From assembly GCA_028699255.1 (NCBI GenBank), contig JAQVUX010000004.1:88668-152667 (forward strand): DNA of 64,000 nt, given 5' to 3'. Position numbers and translations under genes: made by a program. The notes under the pieces were generated by a model. That model did no database searches, had not been told where the DNA came from, and saw only the letters and a program-made list of their open reading frames with translations. Shown piece by piece: positions 3,287 to 63,420 of this stretch. Origin of the DNA: Candidatus Omnitrophota bacterium. GTDB taxonomy: Bacteria > Omnitrophota > Gorgyraeia > 2-01-FULL-45-10. The stretch's first letter is position 1. Every line of letters starts with the position of its first letter.

Positions 3287-3346
3287 GACACCTCCTATTT
3301 TATTCAGTCATAGTGCTGGCTAAGTGCCGAAGCCTCCGGCCTCGGC

Positions 3347-5175: not shown

Positions 5176-5531
5176 TCCCCTGTAGCTCAGTCGGTAGAGC
5201 ATCTGGCTGTGCACGAGCGAAGCGCCGAGTGCAAAACTCGGCGTACAGCGCCTAAAGTTAGCAGCCTGCGACGGAAACGTCGCGGTGAAAAGCGAGTAAA
5301 TTCAGGGAAATCCGTCAATGTATAATTGGCGGGCTATCCTGAGCCAAGCCTCACAATTGTGGGGAAGGTGCAGAGACTAGAGACTCGCTACCTAAGTCCT
5401 TTCGTCATTGCGAGGCCCGAAGGGCCGAAGCAATCTCAAGGGATATGGTAATGGTATAGTCCGACTCTCCGGGTAACCGGAGTCAGATCGTAACCAGAGT
5501 GTCCGAGGTTCGAGTCCTCGCGGGGGAGCCA
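5176..5531 (+). tRNA. tRNA-Asn(GUU) interrupted by a group I intron; exons 5176-5210 and 5491-5531, CCA encoded
   Basis: The exons give the acceptor stem TCCCCTG/CGGGGGA, discriminator G73, D-arm GCTC-AGTCGGTA-GAGC and anticodon stem TCTGG/CCAGA. The anticodon loop CUGU|UAA and T-arm CGAGG-TTCGAGT-CCTCG follow. The spliced sequence is near-identical in layout to E. coli tRNA-Asn. Confidence 0.8.
5211..5490 (+). ncRNA. Group I intron in the tRNA-Asn anticodon loop, 280 nt, no ORF
   Basis: The intron follows a U and ends in G. It contains R-like CAGAGACTA, S-like TATAGTCC and P-like AATTCAGGGAAAT elements, and a P9-like hairpin CCGGGTAACCGG. Confidence 0.7.
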
Positions 5532-24091: not shown

Positions 24092-24126
24092 GGGGCGCCC
24101 TCAAAAATATGTGCGGCGCCCCTTTT
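24092..24126 (+). terminator. Intrinsic terminator
   Basis: GGGGCGCC/GGCGCCCC stem followed by TTTTGAG. Confidence 0.55.
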
Positions 24127-24300
24127 GAGTTAGATATGATAACCCCGCCGGGAGTGAAAAAAAGGGCGGGGCGATTGCCTGAGTTAGATATGATAACCCC
24201 GCCGGGAGTGAAAAAAAGGGCGGGGCGATTGCCTGAGTTAGATATGATAACCCCGCCGGGAGTGAAAAAAAGGGCGGGGCGATTGCCTGAGTTAGATAAC
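24127..24300. repeat. About 3.2 tandem copies of a 54-bp unit, each with a CCCCGCC/GGCGGGG hairpin and A-rich loop
   Basis: The units at 24127, 24181 and 24235 are identical. They lie immediately upstream of the lrp start. Confidence 0.8.
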
Positions 24301-45319: not shown

Positions 45320-45781
45320 GTGCCGAAAATGACCGATAATATAGTCGCCACCAACAGGCGGGCAAGATTCGAATATAGCATCTACGAGAGCCTTGAGGCC
45401 GGCATAGCGCTTACAGGCACCGAGGTTAAGTCATTGCGTACCGGTAAGGCGAGCATTGCCAATAGTTTCGCGAGGATCGAAGGCGATGAGGTGTTCCTCC
45501 ATGGTATGCATATAGCGCCATACGAATTTGGTAATATTGCTAACCCCGATCCGTTGCGGCCAAGAAAACTGCTCCTGCATAAAAGAGAGATAAAACGGCT
45601 TGCGGAGGACGTTGGAAATAAGAAATTAACGATTATCCCGCTCAAAGCTTATTTTAAAGGCGGGATAGTTAAAGTAGAAATAGGCCTTGCGAAAGGCAAG
45701 AAGCTCTACGATAAGCGTGAAGCGATAAAGAAGAGAGATTCCGATAGAGAAATTAAGCGGATATCGAGAAGTACCAGGTAG
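45320..45781 (+). CDS. smpB: SsrA-binding protein SmpB
   Basis: IA.NRRARFEYSI.E..EAGIAL.GTEVKSLR N-terminal signature. Confidence 0.85.
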   Translation: MPKMTDNIVATNRRARFEYSIYESLEAGIALTGTEVKSLRTGKASIANSFARIEGDEVFLHGMHIAPYEFGNIANPDPLRPRKLLLHKREIKRLAEDVGNKKLTIIPLKAYFKGGIVKVEIGLAKGKKLYDKREAIKKRDSDREIKRISRSTR

Positions 45782-45796
45782 GGCCGTTCTTTTATA

Positions 45797-46244
45797 GGGG
45801 GTGAAAGGTATCGACTCAGATACGCAGAGCACAAGCAGCATGTAGAGGTTGCTAGGAGGCCTCTTGGCGCAAGCCATTCCTACGGTAACGTGGGGATAAA
45901 ACACCTGGCAAAAAATCAAATGCTGAAAACGTAAAAGTTCCAGCAACGGTGAACGAACTCCTAAGCACCATGCAAGTGGTGCCGGGGCCAGTTCTACCGG
46001 TAGCGTTACCTTTATAAGGTAACCCGTCAGCCGGCCTATTTCCGCGGGGCCGGGTCTGGCGACACTAGCGGGATAGTCCGACGGTGTTTAGCCTTTGGCG
46101 CTTTCGGGCGAAGCTTTCAAAGGATACCTTTTCGAAATTCCGCCTACTGAAGTTCGAAAGGGGAAATTAAAGAGCAGGATAAACATGTAGCGGCTTATGT
46201 TTTGATGTTTGAGGACGGCGGTTCAAATCCGCCCACCTCCACCA
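45797..46244 (+). ncRNA. ssrA: tmRNA (ssrA), about 448 nt, CCA encoded
   Basis: Lies immediately downstream of smpB. The 5' GGGGGUG...GGUAUCGAC pairs with a 3' tRNA-like end: T-arm GGCGG-UUCAAAU-CCGCC, then CACCUCC-A-CCA. The tag reading frame could not be read confidently by eye. Confidence 0.7.
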
Positions 46245-46437
46245 TACTCTGAAAATCTTTCGAAGAAGATTTTCAGGTCCTGGCGTCTAAGATACTTCGA
46301 TTTTGTTCCACAAAATCGAAGGACTCAGGAAACAACGCGAAGAAAGTTTTCAGGTCCTGGCGTCTAAGATACTTCGATTTTGTTCCACAAAATCGAAGGA
46401 CTGAAGAAGTATTTGTCGCGAGAGCGTTCCGACTACT
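46245..46437 (+). repeat. 3' trailer module Y1 after tmRNA (internal tandem duplication with 11-bp-stem hairpins)
   Basis: Begins TACTCTGAAAATC directly after the CCA. It is near-identical to the module after tRNA-Leu at 46683-46895. Confidence 0.75.
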
Positions 46438-46597: not shown

Positions 46598-46682
46598 GCG
46601 GAAGTGGCGGAACTGGCATACGCGCAGGTCTCAGAAGCCTGTGCCGCAAGGCTTGAGGGTTCAAATCCCTCCTTCCGCACCA
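46598..46682 (+). tRNA. tRNA-Leu(CAG), CCA encoded
   Basis: Acceptor GCGGAAG/CTTCCGC, anticodon loop CUCAGAA, long variable arm, T-arm GAGGG-TTCAAAT-CCCTC. Confidence 0.85.
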
Positions 46683-46895
46683 TACTCTGAAAATCTTTCA
46701 AAGAAGATTTTCAGGTCCTGGAGTCTAAGATACTTCGATTTTTCTCTGAAAAATCGAAGGACTCAGGAAACAACGCGAAGAAAGTTTTCAGGTCCTGGAG
46801 TCTAAGATACTTCGATTTTTCCTGAAATTTTCTCCGAAAATTTCGAGAAAAATCGAAGGACTTTAGGAAGCAACGCGAAGAAATTCAATCGACTA
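46683..46895 (+). repeat. 3' trailer module Y2 after tRNA-Leu (duplicate of Y1)
   Basis: Same start TACTCTGAAAATC after the CCA and the same hairpins. It is followed by the palindrome pair at 46898-46947. Confidence 0.75.
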
Positions 46896-53103: not shown

Positions 53104-53176
53104 CGGGGCGTAGCGCATCCCGCCCGGAAGCTGACAGGGGGCGGGACCCCGCCTTGAGTAAAACAGATGGCGGGGG
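53104..53176 (+). repeat. Pseudo-leader module X1: first 14 nt of tRNA-Pro fused to a conserved double GC-clamp hairpin core
   Basis: CGGGGCGTAGCGCA is followed by TCCCGCCCGGAAGCTGACAGGGGGCGGGACCCCGCCTTGAGTAAAACAGATGGCGGGG. A TATAAT-like sequence lies immediately upstream. Confidence 0.75.
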
Positions 53177-53216
53177 CTGGCTAATAACCGGTAGTCGTGT
53201 AGATATTTGTAATTTT

Positions 53217-53293
53217 CGGGGCGTAGCGCAGCTGGCTAGCGCGCTTGGTTTGGGACCAAGAAGTCGACAGTTCGAATCTGTCCGCCCCGACCA
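53217..53293 (+). tRNA. tRNA-Pro(UGG), CCA encoded
   Basis: Acceptor CGGGGCG/CGCCCCG, anticodon loop TTTGGGA, T-arm GACAG-TTCGAAT-CTGTC. Confidence 0.9.
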
Positions 53294-53336: not shown

Positions 53337-53520
53337 CGTCCCTGTAGCTTCCCGCCCGGAAGCTGACAGGGGGCGGGACCCCGCCTTGAGTAAAACAGAT
53401 GGCGGGGCAGTTGGATATTGATTAACAACGTCCCTGTAGCTTCCCGCCCGGAAGCTGACAGGGGGCGGGACCCCGCCTTGAGTAAAACAGATGGCGGGGC
53501 AGTTGGATATTGATTAACAA
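53337..53520 (+). repeat. Two identical 92-bp pseudo-leader modules X2/X3: first 14 nt of tRNA-Arg, the same double-hairpin core, and a 21-nt spacer
   Basis: The units at 53337-53428 and 53429-53520 are identical. Each begins CGTCCCTGTAGCT as the real tRNA does at 53521. Confidence 0.8.
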
Positions 53521-54391: not shown

Positions 54392-55015
54392 TTACTTTTC
54401 GGGTGGTTTAGTCGTAAAATCAGGTTTTTTGGCGTCTTTATCAATCCTTCTTAATATAACTTCTCTTGAAACCACAAAATCCCGGGCTAATAATTCAACG
54501 ACCCTATCCATGATAACATCATCATTTTTGATGCCCAAAGCCCTGATCTGCTTTGAATGATATTTTAACCTCTTTTCCAGATGATGGCTTGGCACCAGGA
54601 CTAATCCGGCAAATTGATTCGCCTGCCATTCAAGCCATGACCATTCATCTTCCGGAAAAGTCTCCATAAAATCCTTCCAATCTCCGGTCGTATTGAATCC
54701 GCGATGCTTGTAAACAGCCTCGTGCATAATAGCATGGCCTACCTCATGGGCTAGAGTAAAGCGATATCGGCCTTGTCTATGCTTATATACGTATTCATCT
54801 ATGGAGATATTCGACAAATCTGAGGATATGAAACCGTCGATTTCTATTATTTCGTGAAGTCCGGGGATCGGAATGATATCAATGTTGAGCTTAAGCTCTA
54901 TGATCTCTTCGATCGGAGTGGGGAAGGCATCCCTTGGATGGTATTTGTGCAGGAAATCCGAAGCTATCTTCTTTATGTGGTCGTAGTTTTTGTAAGGAAC
55001 AAATACATCTGACAT
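54392..55015 (-). CDS. ImmA/IrrE family metallopeptidase (COG2856)
   Basis: HEVGHAIMH HExxH motif. Paired with an upstream XRE regulator. Confidence 0.75.
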   Translation of the reverse strand: MSDVFVPYKNYDHIKKIASDFLHKYHPRDAFPTPIEEIIELKLNIDIIPIPGLHEIIEIDGFISSDLSNISIDEYVYKHRQGRYRFTLAHEVGHAIMHEAVYKHRGFNTTGDWKDFMETFPEDEWSWLEWQANQFAGLVLVPSHHLEKRLKYHSKQIRALGIKNDDVIMDRVVELLARDFVVSREVILRRIDKDAKKPDFTTKPPEK

Positions 55016-55018
55016 TCT

Positions 55019-55387
55019 TTACGATTCCTTGATCAATTTTATCAACTTATCGAGCTTCTCTTTCGAGATCTTTTTACCCCTGATGGTGCGGAATAAAAAT
55101 GGCATTCTCGCGACGATCTCTTTTTCCCTAAGCTCCTTTGGCAGCCGGCCTGATTCCGCGGCCGCAAGGTCAAAGAATTCATACCACTCGTTCGACGCCT
55201 CTTTCAGTTTGAGATAATGAGCGTATTTCTTCAATATCTCATCTTTTGGCGGCGGCAACACGCCTCTTTCAATCTTACTTAAATTTCCAGGATCCATGCT
55301 GTGTTTCTCGCAGAATTGGCGCAGCGTCATGCTCAGCTTTATTCTTCTATCTTTAAAATACGAGCCGAATGTTTTACGTCCGTCCAT
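55019..55387 (-). CDS. XRE-family helix-turn-helix transcriptional regulator
   Basis: LSMTLRQFCEKHSMDPGNLSKIERG HTH. Confidence 0.7.
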   Translation of the reverse strand: MDGRKTFGSYFKDRRIKLSMTLRQFCEKHSMDPGNLSKIERGVLPPPKDEILKKYAHYLKLKEASNEWYEFFDLAAAESGRLPKELREKEIVARMPFLFRTIRGKKISKEKLDKLIKLIKES

Positions 55388-55492: not shown

Positions 55493-55867
55493 TTAATGCG
55501 CTAGCTTATTCCAAGCCTCGAGTTGCTTCTGCCAGTAGATTTCTTTGGCTATGCCGCGGATTTTACGCTCTGTAACCTTACGGATTTTGTCGGTGTTTAG
55601 CAATAATATCTCCTTCTGTATTCTAGGACACAGGAGGAGCAGGCTTGTTATCTGTTTTATCCTCGTATAAGTTATACCAAGCCATTCGGCGATTTGGCTC
55701 AGATCCTTTGCCTTCTCTTCACAAAGCGCTCCTTCTATTTGATTAGATAGCACCAGATATTGTCGTAGCTTCGGCTCGTTTGCTATCTTGGCCATATGAT
55801 ATCGATAAGACTTATGCCTTACGGGCTTTATATCAACTTTGAATTCATATTTTAGATTCGTATTCAT
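55493..55867 (-). CDS. Hypothetical protein with possible HTH
   Basis: LSQIAEWLGITYTRIKQI segment. No other motif recognised. Confidence 0.3.
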   Translation of the reverse strand: MNTNLKYEFKVDIKPVRHKSYRYHMAKIANEPKLRQYLVLSNQIEGALCEEKAKDLSQIAEWLGITYTRIKQITSLLLLCPRIQKEILLLNTDKIRKVTERKIRGIAKEIYWQKQLEAWNKLAH

Positions 55868-56252
55868 AAAATCTATAATTATTTAAGACCATATCCAGCT
55901 TACCAGTCGTTCCGTCGTATTTTACTTCTTTAACCATGCGTTTTAATGCCTCATGTTTTAACTGTGGGAATAGCGCATCCCAGATGGCGAGAATTTCTGT
56001 CAGTTCTTTTTGTGGCATCTTGCCAAGGCAATCTATTACAGAGTCCTCTATAGCCTGTGCATTTACCGATTTGGTAGGGCACGAATTTGAGCCTTGTTTT
56101 TGAACACTTTGGCAGACATAATATCTGTATTTATATTTACCTCGCATCGCATAGGTATGGAACATTGCTTTGCCACAGGCCTTACAACGCAAGATATCGC
56201 TGAGTGGGGCTGTATTTCTCGAATAACCAGCCTTCTCGCGTGTTACGCGCAT
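55845..56252 (-). pseudogene. C-terminal fragment of a large serine recombinase (zinc-ribbon/coiled-coil region only)
   Basis: CxxCG...YYxC...C recombinase zinc beta-ribbon. No resolvase catalytic domain is encoded upstream. Confidence 0.55.
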
Positions 56253-56319
56253 CTTATATTGACACCATATCTCTCGAGGCTTATAATTAACATAAATAAG
56301 CTATATTCCTTTGGCTACA

Positions 56320-56456
56320 TATAAAAGGAAGCGGGGGAACCAAGCCACGGTCTACGATAGATCTTGGGGCGAATATCTAAAATATCTACAATGTAGTAGA
56401 TTAGGGTCACTCAACCCGAGCCCGACAGCTAACCCCGTAAGCTAACATGAGAGAAT
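56320..56456 (+). promoter_or_regulatory. Candidate c-di-AMP riboswitch (ydaO/kimA class) in the kdp leader
   Basis: GCGGGGGAACCA, UUGGGGCGAAUAUC, and GGGUCACUCAACCCGAGCCCGACAGCUAACCCCGUAAGC resemble conserved ydaO-motif segments as recalled from memory. An intrinsic terminator follows. Confidence 0.55.
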
Positions 56457-56458
56457 GC

Positions 56459-56495
56459 AAACCAGAGATAGGCATCCTCTGGTTTTTCTTTTTAA
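56459..56495 (+). terminator. Intrinsic terminator / riboswitch expression platform
   Basis: ACCAGAG/CTCTGGT stem followed by TTTTTCTTTTT. Confidence 0.65.
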
Positions 56496-56508
56496 GGGAA
56501 TCCGTATT

Positions 56509-56589
56509 ATGGATATTTTATTTATAGGAATAATTTTGGGTCTCACGATAATATCTTTTGCATTTGTCGCAGTATGCGGCAGATTATAA
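56509..56589 (+). CDS. 26-aa hydrophobic leader or micro-membrane peptide (MDILFIGIILGLTIISFAFVAVCGRL)
   Basis: RBS AAGGGA lies before the ATG. It is the first ORF after the riboswitch terminator. Confidence 0.3.
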   Translation: MDILFIGIILGLTIISFAFVAVCGRL

Positions 56590-56604
56590 GGCTGGGGTAG
56601 TAAT

Positions 56605-56697
56605 ATGACTATTATTTATTGGATAGGCGGCATAGTTTCACTGTTTTTATTTGCCTATTTATTGATCGCTCTATTGAAGCCGGAGATATTTTCATGA
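56605..56697 (+). CDS. kdpF: K+-transporting ATPase subunit KdpF
   Basis: 30-aa single TM peptide ending YLLIALLKPEIFS, as in the KdpF consensus. Confidence 0.6.
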   Translation: MTIIYWIGGIVSLFLFAYLLIALLKPEIFS

Positions 56698-56773
56698 TCC
56701 TTCGGCGTGGCCAACAGTCTGACAATAGCCTTGCTCAGGATTATTATGGTGAGCGAGCGAAGCGAGTCGAACC

Positions 56774-58519
56774 ATGAATTGGAATAATATTATTCAAGGC
56801 GGGATCTATCTTATAGCGCTAATCCTATTAGTTAAGCCGCTTGGGACATATATGGCCCGCATATACGAGGCAAAACCCGTTGGTCTTAACGTATGGTTTG
56901 GGCCTATTGAAAGATTAGTTTATCGCGTGTCAGGTATTAATCCTGAAGCAGGTATGTCTTGGAAGACATATGCTTTGGCAGTAATGATGTTCAATATTAT
57001 TGGCATAGTCGTTGTTTACGCTATTCAGAGACTTCAGCCACATCTTCCCCTAAACCCAATGTCCATACCACAAGTCCCCCCAGACTTAGCTTTCAATACC
57101 GCTGTGAGCTTTGCTACAAACACCAACTGGCAAAGTTATGGTGGGGAGGCCACATTAAGCTATTTTACTCAGATGATGGCTTTAACAGTTCAGAATTTTG
57201 TGTCAGCGGCAACGGGCATGGCAGTGCTTGTGGCTGTGATAAGAGGATTTATCCAAAAACAAACGGAAACCATAGGTAACTTCTGGGTAGATCTTGTTCG
57301 ATCTACATTATATATACTGCTTCCACTAGCTATAATACTTTCCGTTGTATTGGCTTCCCAGGGTGTTGTTCAGACATTTGCTCCGAGCGTAAAAGCTACG
57401 CTTATCGAAGCAACTAAAGATGCTACTGGAAAGATTGTTCCTGAACAGGTGATAGCTCTCGGTCCTGCCGCTTCTCAAATAGCTATTAAACAGCTAGGAA
57501 CTAATGGGGGAGGGTTTTTCAATGTCAATTCTGCCCATCCCTTTGAGAACCCCACGCCTCTGTCAAACTTCGTGGAGGTTTTGGCCATACTTTTAATAGC
57601 TGCAGCATTATGCTATACATTCGGATACATGGTTAAAGACAGGCGCCAAGGATGGGCGATTCTGGCCGCTATGTTAATTATCTTTATCCCATGTCTCTGG
57701 TTATGTACGCACATTGAACAACAGGGGAATCCTTTGTTAAGCAAATTAGGAATTGATCAGAGTGCGAGTGCTATGCAGCCAGGCGGTAATATGGAAGGCA
57801 AGGAAGCACGTTTTGGCATCGCGAATTCAGCTTTATGGGCAACAGCTACGACTGCCGCCTCCAATGGTTCGGTCAACTCAATGCATGATTCTTACATGCC
57901 TCTTGGCGGGATGATATCGATGTGGCTTATGCAATTAGGGGAGGTTATATTTGGCGGGGTTGGTTCAGGTCTTTACGGTATGATCGCATTTATTATTGTC
58001 GCTGTATTTATATCGGGCCTTATGATAGGGCGCACTCCCGAATATTTAGGAAAGAAAATCGAAGCGTATGAAATGAAAATGGCTTCTCTTATGATTTTAA
58101 TACCTCCGATGATTGTTCTTATGGGCACAGCCATTTCGGTAATTGTGCCTGCTGCTAAAAACTCAATTTTAAACCCTGGGCCGCATGGATTTAGTGAAAT
58201 ATTATATGCTTTTTCATCGGCAGGAAATAACAACGGAAGCGCGTTTGCGGGTTTAACTACGAATACGTTTTTCTATAATATCGCTCAAGGATTAGCGATG
58301 TTTTTCGCTAGATACTGGCTTATAATACCGGCTCTTGCGATAGCCGGATCACTTTCTAAGAAAAAGATAGTGCCTGTAAGTCAAGGAACTTTGCCTACAC
58401 ATACGCCGCTTTTTATTGTATTTCTGGTTATGGTTATATTGATTGTAGGTGCGCTCACTTTTTTCCCGGCATTGGCTCTTGGGCCTATTGTTGAGCACTT
58501 AACCCTTACTTCTATATGA
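56774..58519 (+). CDS. kdpA: K+-transporting ATPase subunit KdpA
   Basis: Typical KdpA N-terminus and selectivity-filter-like G-rich loops. Length 581 aa. Confidence 0.9.
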
Positions 58520-60579
58520 AAACAAAATCATTATTCGACCTCGCTATTGTAATTCCGGCGATTGTGGATTCTATAAAAAAATTGAACCCCAAGCATCAGA
58601 TTAAGAATCCAGTTATGTTTGTCGTGTTGGCGGGAAGCGTGCTTACCACAGGCTTATATATTCAGGCCATTGTTGCGCATGGGGAAGCACCGGCAAGTTT
58701 TATTCTGGCTATAACGCTGTGGCTTTGGTTCACGCTAATATTTGCTAACTTCGCGGAAGCTATGGCTGAAGGTCGCGGTAAGGCGCAAGCCGCAAGCTTA
58801 AGGAAGGCAAGACGGGATACCCCAGCGAAGAAACTCTCAAGCCCTAAATATGGCTCAAGCTATGAAACAATTTCAGCTACGACAATAAGGAAAGGAGATA
58901 TTGTTTTAATCGAAGCGGGCGACATTATACCGATGGATGGTGAGATTATAGAAGGAGTAGCTTCGGTTGATGAAAGCGCGATAACAGGAGAAAGCGCGCC
59001 CGTCATACGCGAATCAGGCGGGGATCGCAACGCTGTTACCGGGGGAACGCGAGTACTTTCAGACTGGATAGTAGTACGAGTTAGTTCAAATCCTGGCGAG
59101 ACATTCTTAGATCATATGATAGCGATGGTCGAAGGCGCGAAACGACAGAAGACGCCCAACGAAATAGCGCTTAGCATTTTACTTGCGGTATTTACGATAA
59201 TATTTCTTTTAGCCACAGTAACGCTCCTTCCATTTTCTATCTATAGTGTTGTTAGCGCTGGCCATGGTGTACCTATTACAGTAACAGTATTAGTGGCGTT
59301 ACTCGTATGCCTTATACCGACTACTATAGGAGGCCTTTTGCCTGCCATTGGTATCGCTGGAATGGATAGGATGATCCAGGCAAACGTTATAGCTACTTCA
59401 GGACGTGCCGTTGAAGCGGCAGGGGATGTTGATGTTCTACTGCTTGATAAAACAGGTACTATAACGTTGGGTAATAGACAGGCGGTTGCTTTTATACCGG
59501 CCCAGGACGTCAAAGTCGAAGCATTGGCGGATGCGGCACAACTGGCTTCATTATCTGACGAAACTCCGGAAGGCAGAAGCATAGTGATATTAGCTAAAGA
59601 GAAATACAATATTAGAGAACGCCAAATCCATGAGCTTGAAGCGAAATTTATCCCTTTTACTGCCCAAACAAGAATGAGCGGAGTAGATTTAGGTGATGGA
59701 CGGCAGATCAGAAAAGGCTCAGCCGATGCGATAGAAGATTATGTGAAAAAGCTCGGAGGACTTTTCCCTGAAGATTTGAAATTAAATATTCAGAACATAT
59801 CCAAGACTGGCGGCACGCCGCTAGTAGTAGCGGAACATAAGAATGTATTAGGTGTTATTCAGTTGAAGGATATAGTGAAGGGTGGTATCAAAGAACGTTT
59901 CGCGGAACTGCGACGTATGGGAATCAAAACTATAATGATCACAGGTGATAACCCATTGACAGCTGCGGCCATAGCTGCCGAGGCAGGTATGGATGATTTT
60001 TTAGCGCAGGCGACACCTGAAACAAAACTTAAGCTTATCCGGGAGATGCAGCTTGGCGGTAGACTTGTCGCAATGACAGGTGATGGTACTAATGATGCAC
60101 CCGCTCTCGCGCAGGCGGATGTCGCAGTTGCTATGAATACAGGGACGCAGGCCGCGAAGGAAGCGGGCAATCTCGTAGATCTCGATTCTAATCCTACAAA
60201 ATTAATTGAGATCGTTGAAATTGGAAAACAATTACTTATGACCCGAGGATCATTAACTACTTTTAGTATCTCTAATGATGTTTCAAAATACTTTGCGATC
60301 ATTCCGGCGGCTTTTGTAGGAACATATCCTCAGCTAGACGCGCTTAATATAATGCACCTTACCACGCCGTCTAGCGCTGTTCTATCTGCGGTTATTTTTA
60401 ACGCCATTATCATAATAATGCTAATTCCACTGGCTCTGCGCGGTATACCTTATAAGCCGATGTCGGCAAGTCGCCTTCTGAGAGACAATCTTTTGATCTA
60501 TGGCATAGGCGGCATTATCGCGCCATTTATAGGGATAAAACTAATTGATATGTTGTTGGCTGCCTTGCATTTGGTATAA
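58516..60579 (+). CDS. kdpB: K+-transporting P-type ATPase subunit KdpB
   Basis: DKTGTIT phosphorylation motif. TGDN and [10 protein letters not shown] motifs. Confidence 0.9.
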
Positions 60580-60640
60580 AGCCGATGTCGGAGACATCGG
60601 CACTTAGCTGGCACCGTGGCTTAATAAACTTGGGATAATT

Positions 60641-61219
60641 ATGTTTAGAGAACAGTTAAAATCTGCCATTCTTGTTTTTATAATATTGACGATAATCACA
60701 GGAGTTCTCTACCCGCTATTTGTAACAGGAATTGCTCAAGCTTTTTTCCATACCAAAGCTAACGGTAGCCTTATATATCGAAATGGAAAAATAATTGGTT
60801 CAGCCCTTATAGGACAACCATTTGATGATCCTAAATATCTATGGGGACGGCTGTCGGCCACATCGCCCGTGCCTTATAATTCTAATTCGTCATCGGGCTC
60901 AAATATTGGGCCGTCGAATGGAGCACTTTTAGAAACTGTAAAGTCCCGTATTGAAAAACTGCGTGCAGCCGATCCTAAAAACAAGATGCCTATACCCGTA
61001 GATTTAGTGACATCATCGGCGAGCGGGCTTGATCCGCATATAAGTAAGGCTTCCGCTTATTATCAGGTTCCTCGAATAGCGAAACAACTAGGGCTCTCTG
61101 TAAATATTGTAAAAAACATTGTTGATCAAAACGCAAAAGGGCGTCTCTTTGGTTTAATCGGAGAGCCGGTTGTAAACGTATTGAAGGTAAATATGGATTT
61201 GGATTCATACAAAAAATAG
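60641..61219 (+). CDS. kdpC: K+-transporting ATPase subunit KdpC
   Basis: Single N-terminal TM helix. SGLDPHIS motif. Confidence 0.85.
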   Translation: MFREQLKSAILVFIILTIITGVLYPLFVTGIAQAFFHTKANGSLIYRNGKIIGSALIGQPFDDPKYLWGRLSATSPVPYNSNSSSGSNIGPSNGALLETVKSRIEKLRAADPKNKMPIPVDLVTSSASGLDPHISKASAYYQVPRIAKQLGLSVNIVKNIVDQNAKGRLFGLIGEPVVNVLKVNMDLDSYKK

Positions 61220-61233
61220 AGTATATTATAGAC

Positions 61234-63420
61234 ATGACAAACGAAAATAATAATATCGACGAAATTCTGGCGCGGGTAAAGAGCGAAGGATCTAACCGCG
61301 GAAAGCTTAAGATTTTCTTCGGGGCAATGGCCGGAGTAGGGAAAACTTATTCCATGCTTGAAGCGGCAAGAGTTCTGAAAAAAGAAGGAATTGATGTTGT
61401 TGTCGGTTACGTAGAGACGCATGGACGCGCAGACACAGACGTTTTATTAGAGGGCCTTGAAATCCTGTTTCGTAAAGAAGTGTCATATAAAAACATCAAA
61501 CTTAGTGAATTCGATGTTGATTCGGCCTTAAAGAGGCGTCCCTCTACGATATTGGTTGATGAGTTGGCTCACTCGAACGCCCCCGGTTCTCGTCATCCTA
61601 AGCGTTGGCAGGATGTAGAGGAGCTCTTGGACGCAGGCATTAATGTCTATACGACTCTAAATGTCCAACACTGTGATAGCGCCAATGACGTTGTGGCCCA
61701 GGTTACAGGGGTAACAGTGCGCGAAACCGTCCCTGATACCTTTGTTGAAAAAGCAGACGATATAGAATTAGTAGATCTCCCTCCAGAAGACTTACTTAAG
61801 CGCCTCAAAGAAGGCAAAGTTTATCTTGGTGAGCAAGCCCAGCGGGCAATCCAGAATTTCTTTCAGATAGGAAATCTTATTGCACTGCGCCAATTAGCAC
61901 TACAGTATACAGCTAGGATCGTAGACGCTAAAATGCGATCCTATAAACAGGCGTATTCTATAACAAAGGTTTGGAATGTAAGAGATCGACTTTTAGTATG
62001 CATAAGCGCCAGCCCTCGAGCCACACGGCTTATACGGGCAGGAAAGCGCATTGCTTCCAGCATTGGTGTTGAATGGATTGTTGCTTACGTTGAGCCGATT
62101 TCTCAAATACCTAATAGAAGGGGCAAGGCCGATATAGTAGAGACAATGCGCTTTGCCGAACGATTGGGCGCTGAAACGGTTACACTTACCGGGTTAAATA
62201 TAGCGGAGACTATAATCGAATACGCTCGGTCAAGGAACATCACAAAAATTATTATTGGAAAGCCTGGCAAGCCCAAGTGGCATGAATTTATTTTTGGGTC
62301 CGTGATAAATGCGCTTGCGAGAAAATGCGGTGAGATAGATTTGTATCTTATGAGTGGAGAAACGCAGGAGCCGCCTGCCAAATACGAAGCGCCCACTTTA
62401 AAACCATTCCCATGGAAAGGTTTATTATGGGCTATGGGCGTCGTTGCAATTTGTACCATAGTAGATAGTTTTTTATTTAAGCACTTAAGCCTTGTAAATT
62501 TAATAATGATTTATTTATTAGGAGTTACCTGGATTGCTTATAAGTATGGCCGCAGAGCGTCAATTATAGCCTCGATCTTAAGCGTCTTATCTTTTGATTT
62601 CTTTTTTGTCCCGCCTTATTTCACATTTGCCGTAGCCGATGTAGAATATTTTATAACATTCACAGTTATGTTAGCGGTAGGCGTTATAATAGGAAGTCTT
62701 ACAGGACGACTTCGGCAGCAGACTACAGCTATGCGACTGCGGGAAAACAGGACTCAGGCATTATATTATCTGAATAGGGATTTGGCCAAAACATCCAGTC
62801 TGGATGAAATCTTTCAGATATCGGTTCATTATGTTCAAGAGTTTTTTAAATGTCCGGCTGTTATTTTTACGCCCGTAAAAGGGAAGAGTATCGCAATTCG
62901 TTTTGGCGATACCAAAGTAATGCCATTAAGCCCAAACGAAGAAGCTGTGGCCCAGTGGGTATATGAGCATAGAAAGATGGCGGGGAAGGATACGGACACA
63001 CTTCCAGGCTCACGAGGTATTTATTTGCCGTTAACCGGTGCTGAAAAGACCGTAGGCGTTATTGGGCTATTTCCTAGAGAAGAGAGGCAGTTAAACGATC
63101 CGGATCAATTGCATATACTCGAAATATTCGTAAAACAAACTGCCTCGGCGGTAGAAGGCGCTCAGCTTGCCGCCGCCGCGGTTAAAACTGATGCGGAAAT
63201 CGAAAGCCAGCGTCTGCGAAACTTGCTTTTAAGTACATTTTCTCTGGATCTTCCCGCGCCGTTAAAAATAATTTCTGAAGCCACTGCGGAATTGTTAAAA
63301 CCCGAGAATATGGATGATAAATTAAAACGTAGTGAATTAATTCAGAAGATCCGCGAACAGGCACAGCGCTTGAACGACCTCTCCTCCGAAATGACAAAGA
63401 TAATTAAATCGGAAGAGTAA
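61234..63420 (+). CDS. kdpD: KdpD-like sensor lacking the histidine kinase module (KdpD N-terminal domain, Usp, 4 TM and GAF only)
   Basis: GKLKIFFGAMAGVGKT P-loop of the KdpD N-domain, a Usp region and a TM cluster. It ends after a GAF-like region at 728 aa. No HisKA/HATPase domain and no kdpE follow. Confidence 0.75.
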   Translation: MTNENNNIDEILARVKSEGSNRGKLKIFFGAMAGVGKTYSMLEAARVLKKEGIDVVVGYVETHGRADTDVLLEGLEILFRKEVSYKNIKLSEFDVDSALKRRPSTILVDELAHSNAPGSRHPKRWQDVEELLDAGINVYTTLNVQHCDSANDVVAQVTGVTVRETVPDTFVEKADDIELVDLPPEDLLKRLKEGKVYLGEQAQRAIQNFFQIGNLIALRQLALQYTARIVDAKMRSYKQAYSITKVWNVRDRLLVCISASPRATRLIRAGKRIASSIGVEWIVAYVEPISQIPNRRGKADIVETMRFAERLGAETVTLTGLNIAETIIEYARSRNITKIIIGKPGKPKWHEFIFGSVINALARKCGEIDLYLMSGETQEPPAKYEAPTLKPFPWKGLLWAMGVVAICTIVDSFLFKHLSLVNLIMIYLLGVTWIAYKYGRRASIIASILSVLSFDFFFVPPYFTFAVADVEYFITFTVMLAVGVIIGSLTGRLRQQTTAMRLRENRTQALYYLNRDLAKTSSLDEIFQISVHYVQEFFKCPAVIFTPVKGKSIAIRFGDTKVMPLSPNEEAVAQWVYEHRKMAGKDTDTLPGSRGIYLPLTGAEKTVGVIGLFPREERQLNDPDQLHILEIFVKQTASAVEGAQLAAAAVKTDAEIESQRLRNLLLSTFSLDLPAPLKIISEATAELLKPENMDDKLKRSELIQKIREQAQRLNDLSSEMTKIIKSEE

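Follow-up and report, generated by a model that had tools for sequence, protein, structure and literature searches.

A kdp operon, probably of Omnitrophota, with a predicted c-di-AMP riboswitch, a kinase-less KdpD and a conserved small open reading frame

The closest described relative of the system reported here is the kdp operon of Bacillus thuringiensis BMB171, where cyclic di-AMP (c-di-AMP) promotes termination of transcription at the kdp leader, KdpD is truncated and KdpE is absent (Wang et al. 2019, PMC6488665). That study counted 12 species with the arrangement, which it regarded as confined to Bacillales; their KdpDs, of about 365 amino acids, consist of the N-domain and the Usp domain only (PMC6488665). 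KdpD is also known to be a tandem serine/histidine kinase, with variants in which the DHp-CA region is truncated (Silberberg et al. 2024, PMC11018627). These truncated forms were noted mainly in Campylobacterota and Archaea, with no link to a riboswitch (PMC11018627). Here we describe a kdp operon in a 64,000-nucleotide stretch of DNA (contig JAQVUX010000004.1; the window in what follows) that combines a predicted c-di-AMP riboswitch with a KdpD that has lost its histidine-kinase function. The regulatory design is known, from the B. thuringiensis work of 2019 and the serine-kinase-only KdpD concept of 2024, and the locus is a variant of it, probably from Omnitrophota.

As in B. thuringiensis, a c-di-AMP riboswitch of the ydaO class lies with a terminator in the 5' leader of kdpFABC, a non-kinase kdpD is located 3' of kdpC, and there is no kdpE. 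The differences are what is new about the design. The host lineages are probably Omnitrophota and Phycisphaerae-type Planctomycetota, not Bacillales. KdpD has kept the transmembrane domain and GAF; the Omnitrophota type also has a DHp hairpin without the acceptor histidine, while a second type of truncation is found in Phycisphaerae. Finally, an extra cistron of 26 amino acids precedes kdpF.

A sequence-only reading of this DNA had proposed that a ydaO-class leader precedes kdpFABC, and a scan with the Rfam model of the ydaO-yuaA class (RF00379) bears this out. The full model (positions 1-134 of 134) matches 56289-56458 on the plus strand with 84.3 bits, the gathering score being 38 (E 3.5e-18). 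As a sample of relatives we used 163 kdpD-containing loci (2.1 Mb), drawn from genome and metagenome collections and from look-ups of encoding contigs and denoted below by L numbers. An nhmmer profile, the Rfam model and our own covariance model, when run over these 2.1 Mb, returned an identical set of nine riboswitch sites, namely the window and L081, L087, L088, L089, L090, L035, L148 and L048. All nine are upstream of kdp, and the eight related aptamers have Rfam scores of 69-82 bits. The RNAalifold consensus of the nine is the multi-helix ydaO architecture, with compensatory changes on both sides in 12 of the 36 consensus pairs of the alignment. A pseudoknot between a loop and the 3' tail is a feature of the ydaO riboswitch class. 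The predicted partners in the window are CUCA in a hairpin loop (56410-56413) and UGAG in the 3' tail (56448-56451). The complementarity of the last hairpin loop and the tail is retained in four variants (CTCA/TGAG, TCTC/GAGA, CTTCT/AGAAG and CCTC/GAGG), with the segments aligned by hand and by script, a weaker test than helix covariation. Judged by its sequence, the RNA of the window is a real and conserved c-di-AMP riboswitch.

The predicted expression platform follows at 56459-56493. It is an intrinsic terminator with a 9-bp stem (AAACCAGAG paired with CUCUGGUUU), a 9-nucleotide loop and a U-run (UUCUUUUU), and it was missed by a terminator scan because the scan has a loop limit of 8 nucleotides. 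The earlier reading had called it strong. The hairpin and U-run are indeed present and are kept in relatives, but the fold has an energy of -11.9 kcal/mol and z = -0.95 against shuffled sequences; it is therefore a typical terminator and 'strong' is an overstatement. Five of the eight relatives have a hairpin and U-run 3' of the aptamer (L081, L089, L087, L088 and L048). In L148 and L035 a short U-run follows the aptamer, and L090 has no clear hairpin.

Immediately upstream of the aptamer, at 56259-56287, is a sigma-70 promoter, TTGACA-17-TATAAT, which agrees with the consensus at 12 of 12 positions. The same hexamers and spacing occur in L081, and a perfect promoter that is kept in a relative suggests that no activator is needed. 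Downstream of the terminator, and like it on the plus strand, the 26-amino-acid open reading frame (ORF) is followed by kdpF (56605-56697, 30 amino acids), kdpA (56774-58519; PF03814, 834 bits), kdpB, which encodes the P-type ATPase (58516-60579), kdpC (60641-61219; PF02669, 242 bits) and kdpD (61234-63420, 728 amino acids). KdpF had been described as canonical, which agrees with its matches to PF09604 (30.9 bits) and TIGR02115 (34.7 bits). All four pump subunits, KdpF, KdpA, KdpB and KdpC, are thus encoded according to Pfam, and KdpB has its catalytic motifs (TGES at residues 157-160 and DKTGT at 311). The next gene 3' of kdpD encodes a DUF6016/cupin protein. As the first reading had stated, no kdpE follows: there is none in the 580 nucleotides that remain 3' of kdpD in the window, and no KdpE-like or kinase-catalytic sequence was found in the whole 64 kb.

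The association between the riboswitch and the type of KdpD can be examined across the loci whose region upstream of kdpA is covered. The riboswitch is present at 8 of 19 loci with a kinase-less KdpD and at 0 of 69 with a full-length KdpD (Fisher p = 1.2e-6); L089, which has the riboswitch and a kdpD cut by the contig end, was kept apart in these counts. Likewise, kdpE is found 3' of kdpD at 106 of 121 full-length loci and at 0 of 22 kinase-less ones. The mutual exclusivity of riboswitch and KdpDE that Wang et al. described therefore appears, from these sequences, to be repeated in other phyla. The earlier suggestion that a c-di-AMP riboswitch and terminator control kdp is thus supported by the Rfam score, the covariation, the association across loci and, by analogy, the B. 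thuringiensis leader (PMC6488665).

The KdpD of the window retains the sensor modules that had been claimed for it, each with a domain match. These are the KdpD N-domain with its Walker A/B motifs (residues 22-228, 61297-61917), Usp (251-365, 61984-62328), the four-helix DUF4118 transmembrane domain (398-501, 62425-62736) and GAF (522-641, 62797-63156). Structural relatives of the modules in the PDB are 2r8r (N-domain), 2ksf (transmembrane) and 4qpr (GAF). The companion claim, that HisKA and HATPase domains are missing, needs to be amended. Neither HisKA nor HATPase_c matches above threshold, and no functional acceptor histidine is present. However, HisKA does match the C-terminal tail below threshold, and this tail (residues ~651-728, about 63184-63417) forms a gap-free alignment with the two DHp helices of full-length KdpDs and ends where the CA domain would start. 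The stretch is 40% identical to the DHp of one full-length KdpD (E 1.7e-9). Its H-box reads FSLDLPAPL in place of SHDLRTPL, the acceptor histidine being replaced by leucine. Within the Omnitrophota-type clade (725-730 amino acids) the residue at this position is L, S, F or Y. Other kinase-less KdpDs, of 640-691 amino acids and from Phycisphaerae, Holophagales and others, form a second group that ends just past the GAF domain.

Neither of the two relevant NCBIfam models fits this protein. NF007793, the KdpD sensor histidine kinase, aligns over positions 9-712 of 895 with 713 bits, below its cut-off of 1123. NF038185, the 'KdpD-like non-kinase potassium sensor', resembles the KdpD of the window in that residues 9-374 align with model positions 7-371 of 373, but its 384 bits fall short of the cut-off of 550 and there are about 350 further residues, comprising the transmembrane domain, GAF and the DHp remnant. 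The closest homologues are 84-90% identical, about 728 amino acids long and metagenomic, and the named ones are labelled Candidatus Omnitrophica or Omnitrophota. The protein is not a pseudogene product, because more than 120 protein clusters at 63-90% identity share its length (~725 amino acids) and domain set.

The N-domain of KdpD can act as a serine kinase for KdpB independently of DHp-CA, using a Walker A motif G-x5-GKT, a Walker B Asp-Glu, and an aromatic residue and an Arg that coordinate adenine (PMC11018627). The same motifs are found here, as GAMAGVGKT-Y39, D109/E110 and R190, and the TGES motif of KdpB provides Ser160, the counterpart of Ser162 in E. coli. A further likeness to the system of Silberberg et al. 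is that architectures without histidine-kinase function occur in species without KdpE. The locus differs from that system in that the truncated KdpD is coupled to a riboswitch, and here the serine-kinase activity is predicted from motifs. The Usp domain, which the earlier reading had proposed as a c-di-AMP sensor, is less clear-cut in this role. The consensus of c-di-AMP-binding KdpD Usp domains is (A/G/C)xSxSxxN...(Y/F), in which the Asn gives specificity for c-di-AMP (PMC8214093). The window has C-I-S-A-S-P-R-A ... Y, which keeps 4 of the 5 consensus positions and has Ala for the Asn. The beta2 strand, WIVAY, is nearer to the E. coli type WxAVY (PMC4686210).

The first cistron of the operon, MDILFIGIILGLTIISFAFVAVCGRL (56509-56589), encodes 26 amino acids predicted to form a single membrane helix. 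It has a ribosome-binding site, AAGGGA, 9 nucleotides upstream, and is separated by 15 nucleotides from the U-run of the terminator and by another 15 from kdpF. The earlier reading took it for a leader peptide. This does not hold up, because the ORF is located 3' of the terminator and is shared by relatives with no riboswitch (L082, L001-L003, L085 and L097). In fact, an ORF of 26-28 codons is retained in every Omnitrophota-type relative, riboswitch or no riboswitch. A hidden Markov model of the peptide, built from 31 members, gave 52 matches with E <= 0.01 in the six-frame translation of the 2.1 Mb. Fifty of these lie on the kdpA strand, at most 400 nucleotides upstream of that gene, and the remaining two belong to kdp operons as well. 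The peptide is carried by 49 of 94 kdp loci from many phyla, including ones labelled Polyangiaceae, Burkholderiales, Chromobacterium and Gemmatimonadales, and the carriers mostly have a full-length KdpD. Its core is 26 gapless columns that start with Met-Asp; Asp2 is invariant, and Ser/Thr16, Cys23, Arg/Lys25 and Leu/Val26 are conserved. This amino-acid pattern is kept across phyla despite low DNA identity, and differences within the family number 554, 309 and 685 at codon positions 1, 2 and 3, as expected of coding sequence.

No family in Pfam or NCBIfam matched the peptide, and a tblastn search with one member against plasmids gave no match. Database versions of 30 amino acids or more are named 'hypothetical protein' only, and in the small-protein reviews that could be searched the only kdp small protein mentioned is KdpF. 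Annotation has passed over the peptide because its ORF is shorter than 90 nucleotides. Like KdpF, it is a single hydrophobic helix at the head of the kdp operon. Unlike KdpF, it begins with MD and ends in C-x-(R/K)-L, and it co-occurs with KdpF and does not replace it. We considered the possibility that it is a KdpF paralogue and rejected this, as the hhalign probability against the KdpF profile is 2.6% and the LLKPExF motif is absent. In L087, at about 2015-2110, there is an extra small ORF, MQDKIYWLGAGVCAMLVIYLAVGLLMLHQA, between the terminator and the 26-amino-acid-type ORF, and it resembles the N-terminal part of KdpF. From the sequence conservation we infer that the 26-amino-acid ORF is translated into a membrane peptide, which may serve the pump as an accessory subunit or a regulator.

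Our analysis establishes the identity, conservation and co-occurrence of these parts, and suggests how they may work together. The constitutive-type sigma-70 promoter would transcribe the c-di-AMP riboswitch. When c-di-AMP is high, which would correspond to sufficient potassium or osmotic balance, the aptamer would bind its ligand and form the pseudoknot, the hairpin and U-run would terminate transcription, and the six-cistron operon (the 26-amino-acid peptide, kdpF, kdpA, kdpB, kdpC and kdpD) would be off. When c-di-AMP is low, read-through would allow the pump to be made. KdpD would not take part as a histidine kinase, because it lacks the acceptor histidine, the ATPase domain and a KdpE partner. 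Most likely it keeps only the second KdpD activity, in which the N-terminal Walker A/B domain would phosphorylate the TGES serine of KdpB and stop existing pumps. This activity would be governed by the potassium-sensing transmembrane/GAF module in a dimer held by the His-less DHp hairpin, and possibly by Usp too. We consider this proposal as a whole, a riboswitch-controlled kdp operon with a serine-kinase-only regulator of KdpB, to be likely.

That said, several observations weigh against it. The terminator hairpin is only moderately stable. Folding of truncated transcripts, and of five loci with the 3' strand of the terminator forced to be unpaired, revealed no conserved alternative antiterminator pairing, which leaves the switching structurally unexplained. 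The case for an OFF switch therefore depends on homology to the kdp leader of B. thuringiensis (PMC6488665). A regular expression for the diadenylate cyclase motif had no match in the window or the related loci, a result that is uninformative for the whole genome. The association between riboswitch and kinase loss may in part be phylogenetic: the full-length loci are mostly from Proteobacteria, and common descent inflates the statistic. Of the closest relatives with the same type of KdpD, about half, the six loci named above, have no riboswitch, so this type of KdpD does not require one; a conserved alternative leader was sought in these relatives and none was found. Finally, the search for KdpE and a kinase spans the 64-kb window, and such genes could be located elsewhere in the genome. 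This last point leads to a different arrangement, in which control is split: the KdpD would work with an unlinked histidine kinase (TM/GAF/DHp-CA) and with a regulator resembling KdpE, both encoded elsewhere in the manner of Anabaena, Deinococcus or Alicyclobacillus, and the riboswitch would be an extra layer. Species in which serine- and histidine-kinase functions are on separate chains are known (PMC11018627), and the retained DHp hairpin could heterodimerise with such a kinase. At two of the sampled loci a gene for a KdpE-like response regulator lies about 3 kb upstream of kdpA (L006, 443-898; L101, 342-794), together with a kinase-less KdpD that ends past GAF and no riboswitch, a hint of a separate two-component system in those lineages. 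However, no counterpart was found in the window or beside kdp in the riboswitch-bearing relatives, a full-consensus promoter should need no activator, and riboswitch and KdpDE are mutually exclusive both here and in the data of Wang et al. (PMC6488665). We therefore regard split control as unlikely.

It can also be asked whether the KdpD has any function, or is a decaying remnant of a full-length kdpD at a locus regulated by the riboswitch alone. The loss of the acceptor histidine and CA domain, and the variation of the residue at the histidine position, which is what one expects of a relaxed site, would fit such decay, as would the finding that deletion of the truncated kdpD of B. thuringiensis left kdp transcription unchanged (PMC6488665). 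Yet the shared length and domain set of the many clusters, the conserved Walker A/B motifs, R190, transmembrane and GAF domains, the gap-free DHp helices, and the serine-kinase activity demonstrated for a short KdpD (PMC11018627) make decay highly improbable. A similar question can be asked of the 26-amino-acid ORF, whose translation, rather than its product, might tune kdp expression as a regulatory leader or upstream ORF. Its place as first cistron, closely spaced between the U-run and kdpF, and its escape from annotation, under the size limits of gene callers, are compatible with this. We nevertheless think it quite improbable, given an amino-acid pattern and fixed core length of 26 that are conserved across phyla, the distribution of differences over codon positions, and the presence of the ORF whether or not there is a riboswitch and whichever KdpD, full-length or kinase-less, accompanies it. 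More tentatively, and with rather less confidence than we have in riboswitch control with a serine-kinase-only KdpD, we put forward a bolder combination. The ORF would be an undescribed, widespread kdp component with the pattern MD-(hydrophobic)13-S/T-(hydrophobic)6-C-x-R/K-L, acting as a fifth subunit or as a regulator of KdpFABC/KdpD, and the Omnitrophota-type KdpD would be a pure potassium-sensing serine kinase whose transcriptional role has moved to the riboswitch.

Two spacers of the operon are longer than in relatives. Between kdpF and kdpA there is an insertion of about 80 nucleotides (56698-56777, plus strand) with a CATGA repeat on both flanks. It is absent from L081, L082 and L089, and the stop of kdpF and the start of kdpA overlap in L081 (ATGA); no second copy was found in the window or in related loci. 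The insertion contains promoter-like hexamers, CTGACA-17-TATTAT, at 56719-56747. It could uncouple kdpA translation or allow transcription that is independent of the riboswitch. The spacer between kdpB and kdpC is 61 nucleotides long in the window versus about 8-9 in L081 and L082, and is filled by a 53-nucleotide element with a GC-rich hairpin (60581-60633). Relatives have no copy of it, and the window has one inverted partial copy, 77% complementary, in an intergenic region 57 kb away (3294-3346). The element may be a small dispersed palindromic repeat.

A module that resembles a mobile element lies on the minus strand, directly upstream of the kdp promoter. It consists of a serine recombinase that is cut to its C-terminal Zn-ribbon part (55845-56252, 135 amino acids), an unknown ORF of 124 amino acids (55493-55867), an HTH_3 protein (55019-55387) and a Peptidase_M78 protein (54392-55015). 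In L081 the module is intact upstream of the riboswitch, with a recombinase of 406 amino acids and a DUF2924 protein, and downstream of kdp there is another recombinase/DUF2924 pair. From about 56250 the window and L081 are homologous again, which together with the intact module in L081 suggests a deletion breakpoint and possibly a mobile riboswitch-kdp unit. The kdp operon of L082, which has no riboswitch, is at another locus, beside smpB.

Further features of the window lie outside the operon. A group I intron (RF00028, 70.5 bits; Rfam match 5243-5483, within 5178-5530) sits in an apparent tRNA anticodon loop. Its 5' exon starts with tcccctgtagctcagtcggtagagcatctgg and its 3' exon ends with ccagagtgtccgaggttcgagtcctcgcgggggagcca, and ARAGORN makes no tRNA call there. 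The smpB gene (45320-45781) is followed by a transfer-messenger RNA (tmRNA) of 448 nucleotides (45797-46244) with an unusually long predicted tag peptide. A stretch of 162 nucleotides from the 3' end of the tmRNA (46220-46381) is repeated at 91% identity from the 3' end of a tRNA-Leu (46658-46819), with more short repeats nearby, and this repeat may be the scar of an integration or duplication. Two exact tandem copies of 92 nucleotides (53337-53520) and a 71% copy (53105-53196) flank a tRNA-Pro (53217-53293). Three exact, overlapping copies of a 65-nucleotide unit, spaced by 54 nucleotides, are found at 24126-24298.

In summary, these results would extend riboswitch-only transcriptional control of Kdp from Bacillales to the uncultured PVC group (Planctomycetes-Verrucomicrobia-Chlamydiae), in Omnitrophota-like and Phycisphaerae lineages, and they contradict the literature, which confines the arrangement to Bacillales. 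In KdpD truncations of at least two different structures, the loss of the kinase accompanies the gain of the riboswitch, which supports the idea that the ancestral and indispensable task for KdpD is to control the pump post-translationally. The peptide family is the most novel lead, and it has culturable carriers such as Chromobacterium or Solimicrobium. If it is translated, the peptide would be a conserved, unannotated cistron of a much-studied operon, present in about half of the sampled loci.

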